Below are positions 39,447-44,371 of a stretch of DNA of 64,000 nucleotides, piece by piece. The stretch's first letter is position 1, and every line of letters starts with the position of its first letter. The position numbers and the translations under genes are program-made. The DNA comes from Chloroflexota bacterium (GTDB taxonomy: Bacteria; Chloroflexota; Limnocylindria; P2-11E), in assembly GCA_028876375.1 (NCBI GenBank), contig JAGWSB010000001.1, forward strand, positions 10,233 through 74,232, given 5' to 3'. The notes under the pieces are model-generated. The model worked only from the letters and a program-made list of their open reading frames with translations, did not search any database and was not told the DNA's origin.

Positions 39447-41862
<2,416 letters not shown>

Positions 41863-41968
41863 GCACGAGCCGCTTCGATGTCAGCATACCGCCGTCAGAC
41901 GCGCGCCCGACACGATCCGTCGCTCGTCGAAAGCGCCGGAAAGCGCGGCTTCGACCGGAAAGCGCGGC

Positions 41969-42523
41969 TCAGGCCGGGGTCGCCGCCGCCTTCCTCCGCA
42001 TCGCCTCCCCCATCGTGTCCGTCCCGTCCGCCCGCAGGACCACGACGAGCTCGTCCCCCGGGCCGACGCTGCCCTCCTCGACGATCCGCAGATACGCCCC
42101 CGGACGGCCCGCGGCGGTGAAGCGCTCGATGAAGCCCTTCTCCCCCATCTTCAGCTCGAGCTTCCAGCACGGCATGCGCGGGCCGGCCACCTCCAGCAAG
42201 GCGGTCCCGACGCGCCAGCGGTCGCCGACGCGCGACGACGTGAGGTCGAGCCCTTCGAGCGTCAGGTTCTCGCCGAAGGCGCCGGGCCCGAGATCGCGCC
42301 CGAGCTGGGCGGACCACCACGCGGCGTCCTCGCTCGCGTAGGCGTAGACGGCCTTGTCGGGTCCGCCGTGGCCCCCGCCCGACTGCACGTCGTCGCCGAC
42401 GTGGACCCCCCGGACCGGGAGCCGCTCCGCGACGGGCATCTTCCAGATGCTCGTCGCGACGAGCTCCCCGTTCCGCTCGACCATGCGCGGGTGTCCGATG
42501 TTGACCGAGAGGACCCGCGCCAC
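41969..42523 (-). CDS. MOSC domain-containing protein (YiiM-like)
   Basis: 184 aa; the VNIG..P and GENLT(L/V)EG blocks and the conserved Cys (PCWKLE) are typical of MOSC domains. Confidence 0.7.
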   Translation of the reverse strand: MARVLSVNIGHPRMVERNGELVATSIWKMPVAERLPVRGVHVGDDVQSGGGHGGPDKAVYAYASEDAAWWSAQLGRDLGPGAFGENLTLEGLDLTSSRVGDRWRVGTALLEVAGPRMPCWKLELKMGEKGFIERFTAAGRPGAYLRIVEEGSVGPGDELVVVLRADGTDTMGEAMRRKAAATPA

Positions 42524-42539
42524 ATCGGCAGCCTAGCGC

Positions 42540-43070
42540 CTATCGCGTCGCGGCCGGCTCCTTTTCGAGCAGCTTGAGCCCCTCGCGGATGAACGCCGGG
42601 ATGTCGCCGGGCTGCCGCGAGGTGACGAGGTTGCGGTCGACGACGACCTCTTGGTCGACGACGTCGGCGCCGCCGATCGCCTTGAGGTCGGCCTGGATCG
42701 TCTTCCACGCCGTGAGGCGCCGGCCCTTCTGCGCGCCTGCCGCGATGAGGATCTGCGGCCCATGGCAGATCGCCATCACCGGCTTGTCCTTCTCGAAGAA
42801 CGCCTTCACGAAGTCGACGGCCACCGGGTTCGCGCGCAGTCGGTCGGGCGAGAAGCCGCCGGGGATGAAGAGAGCATCGAACTGCTGCGGCGTCACGTCC
42901 GTGAACGCCTTCTCGACGGTCGCCGTCTCGCGGCCCTTGTCGCCCTTCAGCTCCTGTCCGGCCTGCAGACCGACGATCGTGACGTCGTGGCCGGCCTCAC
43001 GGAGCGCGTCGTACGGCTGCTTGAACTCGGAATCCTCGAAACCGTTGGCGAGCACGCACGCGACCTTCAT
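42540..43070 (-). CDS. DJ-1/PfpI family protein (type 1 glutamine amidotransferase-like)
   Basis: 176 aa with a nucleophile elbow AICHGPQIL and overall PfpI/YhbO block order. Confidence 0.8.
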   Translation of the reverse strand: MKVACVLANGFEDSEFKQPYDALREAGHDVTIVGLQAGQELKGDKGRETATVEKAFTDVTPQQFDALFIPGGFSPDRLRANPVAVDFVKAFFEKDKPVMAICHGPQILIAAGAQKGRRLTAWKTIQADLKAIGGADVVDQEVVVDRNLVTSRQPGDIPAFIREGLKLLEKEPAATR

Positions 43071-43519
43071 ACGGTCCTCCCCCTGTCGTGATCTCCGCCC
43101 AATGCTGCATCTCCCGTTCCCGGGCCGCCGGAGAGGTCGAGATCCGGCGGCGGATCGGGTGGCAGCACCCAGTGCAGGTAGCTCTTCCCCCACTTCGCGT
43201 GCTTGCCGTTGGCGTCGTCGGTCGCCTCGGCGAACGCGCGCTCGAAGCCGGTGAGGTCGCACCGCTCGAGCGCCGCGAGGACGGGCGCGATGCGCTCGGA
43301 CTCGAAGCGATCGAGGTCGTCGCGGTACTTCGGCCGGACGATCCCCAGGCGCCGCTGGATCCCGCGGACGCGGCGCGCGAAGTACGCCGCGAGCTCCCAC
43401 TTCCCGGCGCGCGCCGCGTGAGCGCACCGCCACCACGACTGGCCGACGAGGTACATGAGGTCGCCCGTGCTCGGAAGCGCCTCGCGGACCTCTTCGGGGG
43501 ACAGCTCCGGATCGCTCAC
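43067..43519 (-). CDS. hypothetical protein
   Basis: 150 aa ORF, ATGA-coupled to pfpI, with consistent GC3 bias. I recognised no domain. Confidence 0.45.
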   Translation of the reverse strand: MSDPELSPEEVREALPSTGDLMYLVGQSWWRCAHAARAGKWELAAYFARRVRGIQRRLGIVRPKYRDDLDRFESERIAPVLAALERCDLTGFERAFAEATDDANGKHAKWGKSYLHWVLPPDPPPDLDLSGGPGTGDAALGGDHDRGRTV

Positions 43520-43612
43520 GCCGCCTCCGCCGTCACGGCCGTAATGGTGCCCGACGCCAAGCCGAAAGCGCCGCCGGCGCCCGCTCGCACGCCGCCTGCA
43601 GGCGAGGGGTGC

Positions 43613-44371
43613 ATGCCCACCATCGTCGACCGCCGTGAGGTCGAGCGCCTGCTAGCGGCGGGAGCGCAGCTCGTGGACGTCCGGGAGCAAGAGGCGTATC
43701 GCGAGGCGCATATCCCCGGCGCGATCTCCCTGTCGCTCAAGGAGCTGACGGCTGAGCGCGCTGGGGAGGCGCTCCGACGCGACCGCACCGTCCTCCTCTA
43801 TTGCTGGGACTTTCAATGAGACCTTGCGCCACGGGCCGCGTGGCGGCTCGAGAGCCTCGGGTGCGTAGACGTCCGTTGCTACGCGGGAGCGCTCGCCGAC
43901 TGGACCGCCGCGGGTCGTCCGATCGAAGGCGCTTCGGCAGCGCGGCTCCGCGCCGCGGCTCTCGCACGGCGCGACGCGGCGTCATGCGCGCCGCGCGAGC
44001 GCGTCGCCGACGTCCGTCGGCGCCTGCGCGGAACGGAGTGGGACACCTGCGTCGTGCTCAACGACGAGCGCGTCCTGCTCGGCCGGCTACAACGGAGCGA
44101 CCTGGAACGCGCGGAGGACGACGCGGCCGCCGAGGACGCGATGCATCCCGGCCCGCTCACCTTCCGGCCCGACCACGACGCGCACGATCTCCTCCAGGAG
44201 ATGCGGCAACGGCGGATCTCGACGGCCCCGATAACCACGTCGGATGGCGTCTTCGTGGGGATCGTGCGACGCGAGGACCTCGAGCCCGCGCTCTCATCGC
44301 CGGGCGCCGGGATCGCGTCGATCCCGACGGAGCTCGCCTCCTCGCGGCACCGGTCCAGCGGCGCCTCGTAG
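43613..44371 (+). CDS. rhodanese-domain / CBS-pair fusion protein interrupted by one in-frame TGA at 43817-43819. It is either a selenoprotein candidate or a pseudogene. An alternative start lies at 43544.
   Basis: Upstream of the TGA the sequence reads IPGAISLSLKEL...RDRTVLLYCWDFQ. Downstream, in the same frame, it continues DLAPRAAWRLESLGCVDVRCYAGALADWTAAGRPIEG, which is the rest of a rhodanese domain. A CBS pair follows, and the reading frame ends at TAG 44371. Confidence 0.5.

Follow-up and report, generated by a model that had tools for sequence, protein, structure and literature searches.

Sequence comparisons indicate, with a probability that we put at about 0.9, that an in-frame TGA in a rhodanese-CBS gene of a Chloroflexota bacterium is a genuine selenocysteine (Sec) codon, and the gene almost certainly belongs to a widespread family of rhodanese-CBS selenoproteins represented in soil metagenomes. 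The gene occupies positions 43613-44371 on the forward strand of a 64,000-nucleotide (nt) stretch of contig JAGWSB010000001.1 (assembly GCA_028876375.1, positions 10,233 to 74,232), here called the window, in whose coordinates all positions are given. The TGA lies at 43817-43819, and the proposed core of the selenocysteine insertion sequence (SECIS) is a 17-nt hairpin at 43833-43849. An initial annotation, made from the letters of the DNA alone, had wavered over the TGA between a Sec codon and a very recent pseudogene or sequencing error, and had pointed to a different, overlapping stem as the SECIS element.

Translation of 43613-44371 gives a single continuous frame of 252 codons, in which the TGA is the only internal stop and which ends at a TAG (44369-44371); homologs align along its whole length. 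With the TGA translated as Cys, Pfam identifies a rhodanese domain (PF00581, amino acids [aa] 8-99, positions 43634-43909; E = 1.8e-15, 57.7 bits against a gathering cutoff of 22.2), broken by the TGA at aa 69, and a CBS match (PF00571, aa 174-223; E = 2.1e-12, 47.6 bits against a gathering cutoff of 24). The CBS pair as a whole covers about aa 118-223 (43964-44281), as judged from Pfam, from NCBIfam alignments of the GuaB1-type CBS (aa 118-222), and from fold matches. A continuous frame with one TGA and these two domains was what the initial annotation had described, and the flanking peptides that it quoted are exact. The canonical rhodanese Cys64 (TGC, 43802-43804), placed by alignment and by the AlphaFold model of the Cys-containing homolog P0001, stands at the end of the central β-strand (..LLYC). 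Sec would be residue 69, in the motif C-W-D-F-Q-U-D-L-A-P-R, a position fixed by the TGA/Cys column in homologs and by an independent contig, L153. A nearly invariant Cys125 (TGC, 43985-43987), kept in at least 90% of the sequences in alignments A1 and A3, marks the start of the CBS region (..[VA]-[PS]-[TS]-C..).

The codon-position G+C pattern of coding DNA persists 3' of the TGA, with a third-position G+C fraction (GC3) of 0.86 over 43820-44371. The first in-frame ATG, GTG, or TTG after the TGA is at 44054, 78 codons having passed without a possible restart; synthesis of the first CBS motif and of the last third of the rhodanese domain therefore requires read-through of the TGA. TGA is also the stop of 18 of the 37 open reading frames (ORFs) in the window that have a strong GC3 coding signal. 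A scan of the window for further in-frame TGAs with a two-sided coding signal yielded, at relaxed thresholds, four candidates that resemble chance or antisense ORFs. Because TGA is an ordinary stop and no second convincing in-frame TGA was found in the window, we conclude that the genetic code is not reassigned.

A lone in-frame stop within an otherwise intact ORF has the look of a fresh nonsense mutation, and the closest full-length homologs carry TGC or TGT, a single base from TGA; a young pseudogene, or an error of sequencing or assembly at 43817-43819, had to be weighed for that reason. The 68-aa N-terminal fragment had no match in a look-up by exact sequence. With the neighboring DJ-1/PfpI protein of the window as the query, we recovered two short contigs (L153 and L154) from other sequencing runs; strains nearly identical to that of the window are present in runs SRR32006840 and SRR33230228. 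L153 (run SRR32006840), from a slightly different strain, is 99.76% identical to window positions 41320-43861 (6 mismatches in 2,542 bp); it has the same TGA, and its next 42 nt are identical to those of the window. At least 120 divergent metagenome contigs have a TGA at the corresponding column, the part of the gene 3' of it retains both its GC3 and the family's invariant residues, and the hairpin whose conservation is confined to TGA forms is intact in the window. We regard mutation or error as refuted and leave it next to no weight, so that of the options raised in the initial annotation the selenocysteine codon is the one upheld.

The recurrence of the TGA came to light through protein homology. 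The first protein search returned relatives of two types: full-length proteins with Cys at the TGA column, in the motif ..VYC-x-D-x-x-C-D-[LM]-S-P-RAAWRLE.., and CBS proteins of 150-175 aa (or longer). Eight short CBS relatives all begin with 'MSPRAAWRLE', two residues past the TGA column, and five of their loci (L001-L005) consist of a rhodanese ORF of 66-68 aa, TGA, GAC, and then the ATG of the 'CBS protein'. This arrangement was present in all nine loci reached through truncated CBS proteins (L001-L005 and L155-L158), and the break codon was TGA in 9/9, never TAA or TAG; P0008 has a matching two-gene layout, as judged from gene layout only. A degenerate DNA pattern that called for a TGA sharing the frame of D-x-x-x-R-A-A-W-R-L-E but put no constraint on third codon positions retrieved the metagenome contigs (at least 120) mentioned above, nearly all of which have an in-frame rhodanese N terminus 5' and a CBS part 3' of the TGA. 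Throughout the resulting set of TGA forms (L001-L005, L031-L150, and L155-L158) the TGA falls at one column. The median pairwise identity among the proteins is ~49%, from which it follows that the TGA forms are old.

In an exhaustive profile search, 388 of 1.84 billion cluster representatives scored E ≤1e-30, and the composition of the family was read from the best 150 of these. About 81 of the 150 are fragments that start 2 to 18 residues past the TGA column, about 70 of them exactly at the Met two codons past it and about 11 slightly later. Among the 54 full-length representatives with a recognizable motif, the column holds Cys in 50, Ser in 3, and Trp in 1, and it is Cys in all 21 genome loci used below as Cys forms. 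The alignment of orthologs that the initial annotation had proposed thus has Cys at this column in full-length proteins and TGA in the metagenome contigs. The Trp representative (P0052, ..SLWDMS..) is one base from TGA at this codon; a genuine TGG, a miscall, or translation under another code is possible there.

The truncated CBS proteins invite the reading that the locus is two genes, in which translation of a rhodanese fragment of 68 aa stops at the TGA and termination-reinitiation at an ATG two codons on yields the CBS part. Gene callers do annotate two ORFs, and that ATG is present in 69 of 113 distinct TGA forms. However, the codon specifies Leu in 37 of the 113 and is CTT in the window, where no in-frame start precedes 44054. 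A split would moreover break up one rhodanese fold, leaving the central strand on one side and the active-site helix on the other, and it sits poorly with a break that is only ever TGA in the nine protein-homology loci, at a column that aligns with a conserved Cys. We consider a split gene highly improbable and return to Sec decoding of a single gene.

The 113 distinct TGA forms were compared codon by codon with 21 Cys forms (genome loci L006-L030, obtained with a Cys-containing pattern). The RNAalifold consensus of the TGA forms picks a perfect hairpin, here hairpin B (GGGCCGC-GUG-GCGGCUC; 43833-43849, 17 nt, 7 bp, loop GUG at 43840-43842), and not the stem of the initial annotation, here stem A. 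Hairpin B covers nt 14-30 after the TGA, beyond a 13-nt gap, inside the codons of R74-A-A-W-R-L79. The full set of seven pairs is preserved in 113/113 TGA forms versus 6/21 Cys forms; the changes that do occur in TGA forms all keep pairing (A-U/G-U and G-C/G-U), and the loop is GUG in 112/113. Synonymous choice is correspondingly narrow in the TGA forms: A75 is GCC and A76 is GCG in 112/113 each, R78 is CGG in 113/113, L79 is CTC in 108/113, and the third position of the R74 codon is only A or G. In the Cys forms the third positions of A75, A76, R78, and L79 are mixed (Fisher p = 7e-12, 8.5e-11, 7.6e-6, and 4e-4, respectively). Third-position pairwise identity in TGA forms is 0.878 inside the element and 0.411 outside it; the corresponding values for Cys forms are 0.386 and 0.373. 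On either side of the element (before nt 14 or after nt 30), most synonymous sites vary as much in one group as in the other, with weaker differences at the outlying nt 3, 12, and 45 (p = 0.02 to 0.001).

Four TGA-form variants in which Trp77 is replaced (L155-L158, found through their proteins) keep hairpin B. In L156 and L157 the replacement is Ala or Ser, encoded by GCG and UCG, a choice of codons by which the closing C-G pair of the hairpin survives. A Trp77-to-Cys variant (UGU) has the closing pair opened and one extra pair gained at the base. In L158 an Arg CGG has become Gln CAG and a GCC has changed synonymously to GCU, so that a C-G pair is replaced by U-A, a compensatory change. The bacterial SECIS (bSECIS) model allows a loop of 3 to 9 nt that starts with G[G/U], a stem of 4 to 16 bp, a UGA-to-loop distance of 16 to 37 nt, and a minimum free energy ≤−7.5 (PMC13188914). 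Hairpin B, with its 3-nt loop starting G-U, 7 bp, distance of 20 nt, and energy of −10.7 kcal/mol, falls within every one of these limits. Its role as the predicted recoding signal is well supported by this conservation and pairing.

Stem A (CGCCACG-GGCCG-CGTGGCG, 43827-43833 paired with 43839-43845 around the loop GGCCG) is real and does begin 8 nt past the TGA, as the initial annotation stated, yet the conserved element is hairpin B, which it overlaps (the two together span 43827-43849 in the window) and with which it is mutually exclusive. Across the family stem A amounts to 5+4 bp with 10 to 20% mismatches; it reaches 7 bp in this window only, because the second and third codons after the TGA are CTT GCG (Leu-Ala) here and not ATG AGC. 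Nucleotides 3-12 after the TGA are under no strong TGA-specific constraint, with borderline differences at positions 3 and 12 only, and since the strongly significant TGA-specific synonymous constraints all lie within nt 14-30, stem A was rejected as the SECIS element. Compared with shuffled versions, 43817-43880 shows no gain in folding stability (z = +0.81; 158 of 200 shuffles at least as stable), and single-sequence thermodynamics is therefore useless in DNA of 72% G+C (70 to 75% across the window). A ribosome whose A site holds the UGA would have the 5' arm of stem A, 8 to 14 nt downstream, in or at its mRNA channel, and hairpin B would be free.

The mechanism that we propose is conventional. 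A ribosome at the UGA (43817-43819) would have 13 nt downstream the hairpin at 43833-43849, whose GUG-looped structure would recruit SelB-GTP-Sec-tRNA(Sec); once Sec had been inserted, translation would go on through the remaining rhodanese domain and the CBS pair. We infer the dependence on SelB. Several points weigh against this account. Neither selA, selB, selD, nor a tRNA-Sec was found in the 64-kb window or in any fetched locus (ARAGORN, and tblastn with E. coli SelA, SelB, and SelD); this was the first check that the initial annotation had suggested, and its outcome is uninformative, the window being part of a genome. In the window stem A has a small advantage in stability over hairpin B (−12.3 versus −10.7 kcal/mol). 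Direct covariation is thin, with one double change and the others one-sided, because hairpin B is almost invariant. Rfam has no match at the site, either at gathering thresholds on the whole window or at E values up to 10 on 43780-43900. Finally, the case for Sec decoding in the family is built on sequence-level data.

Decoding of the UGA by an ordinary tRNA for Trp, Cys, Arg, or Gly, stimulated by the hairpin and without Sec machinery, would be in keeping with the failure to find that machinery at any carrier among the window and fetched loci, and with the Trp at the column in one full-length representative, P0052. Such a mechanism, however, leaves unexplained why the column is Cys, the classical counterpart of Sec, in 50/54 full-length forms and why hairpin B fits all of the bSECIS constraints, the G-U loop start and the spacing included; rhodanese-domain selenoproteins are besides an established class (PMC13188914). 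Direct interchange of Sec and Cys is also suggested by locus L008, from a 'delta proteobacterium' metagenome-assembled genome, which has TGT at the column, an intact hairpin B, and Ser in place of the canonical Cys, and is 89% identical to the TGA form L134. L008 looks like a recent Sec-to-Cys conversion, and such conversion would account for some of the six Cys forms with an intact hairpin. In a nearest-neighbor analysis the TGA and Cys groups stand mostly apart, with some interleaving. We judge standard-tRNA read-through to be very unlikely, and retain Sec decoding directed by hairpin B.

The structural setting of the Sec residue was taken from the AlphaFold model of P0001 (predicted local distance difference test score, 90.7). 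In this model the canonical Cys is at or after the end of the central strand, the loop reads C63-Y-D-Y-A-C68-D69, and a helix runs from residue 70. The Sec/Cys column accordingly falls at the end of the 7-residue loop, five residues past the canonical Cys and two before the active-site helix, in agreement with the claim of the initial annotation that the TGA lies in the active-site loop, between the central β-strand and the next helix. The family motif is C-x-D-x-x-U-D-[LM]-[SA]-x-R; the canonical position is Cys in 112/113 TGA forms, and the residues after Sec are D-[ML]-S in the family and D-L-A in the window. In some Cys-form homologs (P0004, P0005, P0079, and P0046) the canonical Cys is Gly or Ser and the column-69 Cys is kept, which makes residue 69 the indispensable one; on these alignments it, and not the textbook catalytic Cys, seems to be essential. 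Very tentatively, Sec69, probably with Cys64 as its selenenylsulfide or persulfide partner, may perform a redox or a sulfur/selenium-transfer reaction, and the C-terminal CBS pair may sense an adenosyl-type ligand and so control the Cys64-Sec69 center. One TGA form (L003, 2794-4158) extends the rhodanese-CBS protein with a C-terminal HAD-family hydrolase, 455 codons in total.

In the window, the selenoprotein gene is preceded by DJ-1/PfpI and MOSC genes on the opposite strand and followed by an HhH-GPD glycosylase gene. A 150-aa ORF without a Pfam match (43067-43519, reverse strand) lies between it and the DJ-1/PfpI and MOSC genes, an arrangement that recurs in contigs L153 and L154. Farther upstream, a thiamine pyrophosphate (TPP) riboswitch (Rfam RF00059, 67.7 bits; 41760-41867, reverse strand) precedes a long ORF at 40054-41769 on the same strand.

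Gene neighborhoods of the family are not conserved overall, and no one operon partner accounts for function. About 7 of 91 TGA loci (L004, L031, L065, L079, L093, L114, and L131) have a MerB-like (alkylmercury lyase, PF03243) gene as their immediate upstream neighbor on the same strand, 200 to 850 nt 5' of the TGA. In several loci of both kinds, TGA and Cys (the latter L025, L026, and L029), the gene just upstream encodes a small thioredoxin (Trx)-like 'YFDGCP' protein, and ArsR-type regulators occur nearby in several loci. MerB-like, ArsR, and Trx-like genes are all absent from the window; near the relatives, they hint at mercury, metalloid, or thiol-stress chemistry. Directly upstream of the TGA form L156, on the same strand (1-1193), are Redoxin/AhpC-TSA and DsbD_TM (CcdA-like) genes, neighbors that recall TsoB, the rhodanese/DsbD fusion selenoprotein.

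Every source sampled divides the TGA forms into two genes, a 'rhodanese' of 66-68 aa and a 'CBS protein' of 150-175 aa, and none of the best 150 of the 388 cluster representatives has a U residue. A profile-based word search returned more than 6,600 clusters at E ≤1e-20; the best 120 are all full-length forms, whose names are 'rhodanese-related sulfurtransferase' alone or joined to 'CBS domain-containing protein', with no mention of a selenoprotein, and no NCBIfam model captures the family. The present reading would correct the annotation of genes that callers currently split in two. It would imply Sec decoding in this high-G+C organism and in many soil bacteria, and the selenoprotein catalogue would gain a frequent soil member. 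The family would also be a clean natural experiment on bacterial SECIS recognition: a 17-nt element held constant across ~49%-identical proteins, Cys relatives in which the hairpin has eroded, and one Cys form, recently switched, in which it survives. With Sec five residues past the canonical Cys and kept where that Cys is lost, it would further suggest that C-x4-C rhodaneses, BH2092 among them, have a catalytic arrangement that is so far unstudied.

BH2092 of Bacillus halodurans (3NHV/3O3W), a structural-genomics rhodanese of unknown function, comes nearest to the rhodanese half among solved structures (E = 6e-11 by sequence; root mean square deviation of 1.7 to 1.8 Å over about 108 residues). 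The two share the active-site spacing C-x4-C (YCWGPAC-NGATKAA in BH2092, YCWDFQU-DLAPRAA here), but BH2092 has Cys in place of Sec, is without the CBS pair, and is about 30% identical. The C-terminal half matches CBS modules (the MgtE cytosolic domain, AcuB, and IMPDH/GuaB1) by fold, in P0001, and by profile; we found no solved structure or described family in which a CBS pair is coupled to a rhodanese domain. In E. coli, the minimal SECIS element of fdhF is 17 nt long and lies 11 nt from the UGA. Like the fdhF-type SECIS and the bSECISearch model, hairpin B is a short coding-sequence hairpin just 3' of the UGA with a small apical loop that starts G-U; unlike the fdhF type, it lacks a bulged U and combines a perfect, G+C-rich 7-bp stem with a loop of 3 nt, and its sequence is unrelated. 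Its near invariance across such divergent proteins arises because it is located in the conserved RAAWRL codons.

The class of rhodanese-domain selenoproteins comprises five forms in a 2026 catalogue: form 1, UxxS (WP_010941598.1, Geobacter); forms 2 and 4, UxxG; form 3, CxU (NF041203, 'LYCAU'); and form 5, TsoB, UxxxxU (NF045694) (PMC13188914). With all five the present family shares a PF00581 domain, Sec in or beside the active-site loop, Cys homologs, and a bacterial SECIS within the coding sequence. Forms 2 and 4 have Sec at the position of the canonical Cys, whereas here Cys occupies that position (112/113) and D-[ML]-S or D-L-A follows Sec. In form 3 Sec is two residues past the canonical Cys and here five, and the NF041203 rhodanese_LYCAU model scored 20.2 and 24.2 bits against a cutoff of 115. 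TsoB has the x4 spacing in common (U-x4-U there, C-x4-U here), but the present protein has one Sec, a CBS pair, and no DsbD part, and the NF045694 model scored 26.4 and 32.7 bits against a cutoff of 805. For form 1, compared by motif description only, U-D-[ML]-S fits UxxS in 112/113 TGA forms, with Ala in the window. The literature that we searched held no paper uniting selenocysteine, rhodanese, and the CBS domain, and two recent selenoprotein resource papers mention neither rhodanese nor CBS in their main text.

We conclude that the family is probably a new form within the known class of rhodanese selenoproteins. A fuller picture, to which we would give a little under even odds, is that of a sixth, uncatalogued rhodanese selenoprotein family: a C-x-D-x-x-U rhodanese-CBS fusion abundant in soil bacteria, whose SECIS would be the nearly invariant 17-nt hairpin in the RAAWRL codons and whose essential catalyst would be Sec69 rather than the canonical Cys, acting as a Cys-Sec redox or chalcogen-transfer switch gated by a CBS ligand and linked, through the MerB-like, ArsR, Trx-like, and Redoxin/DsbD neighbors at a minority of loci, to organomercury, metalloid, or thiol-stress chemistry.

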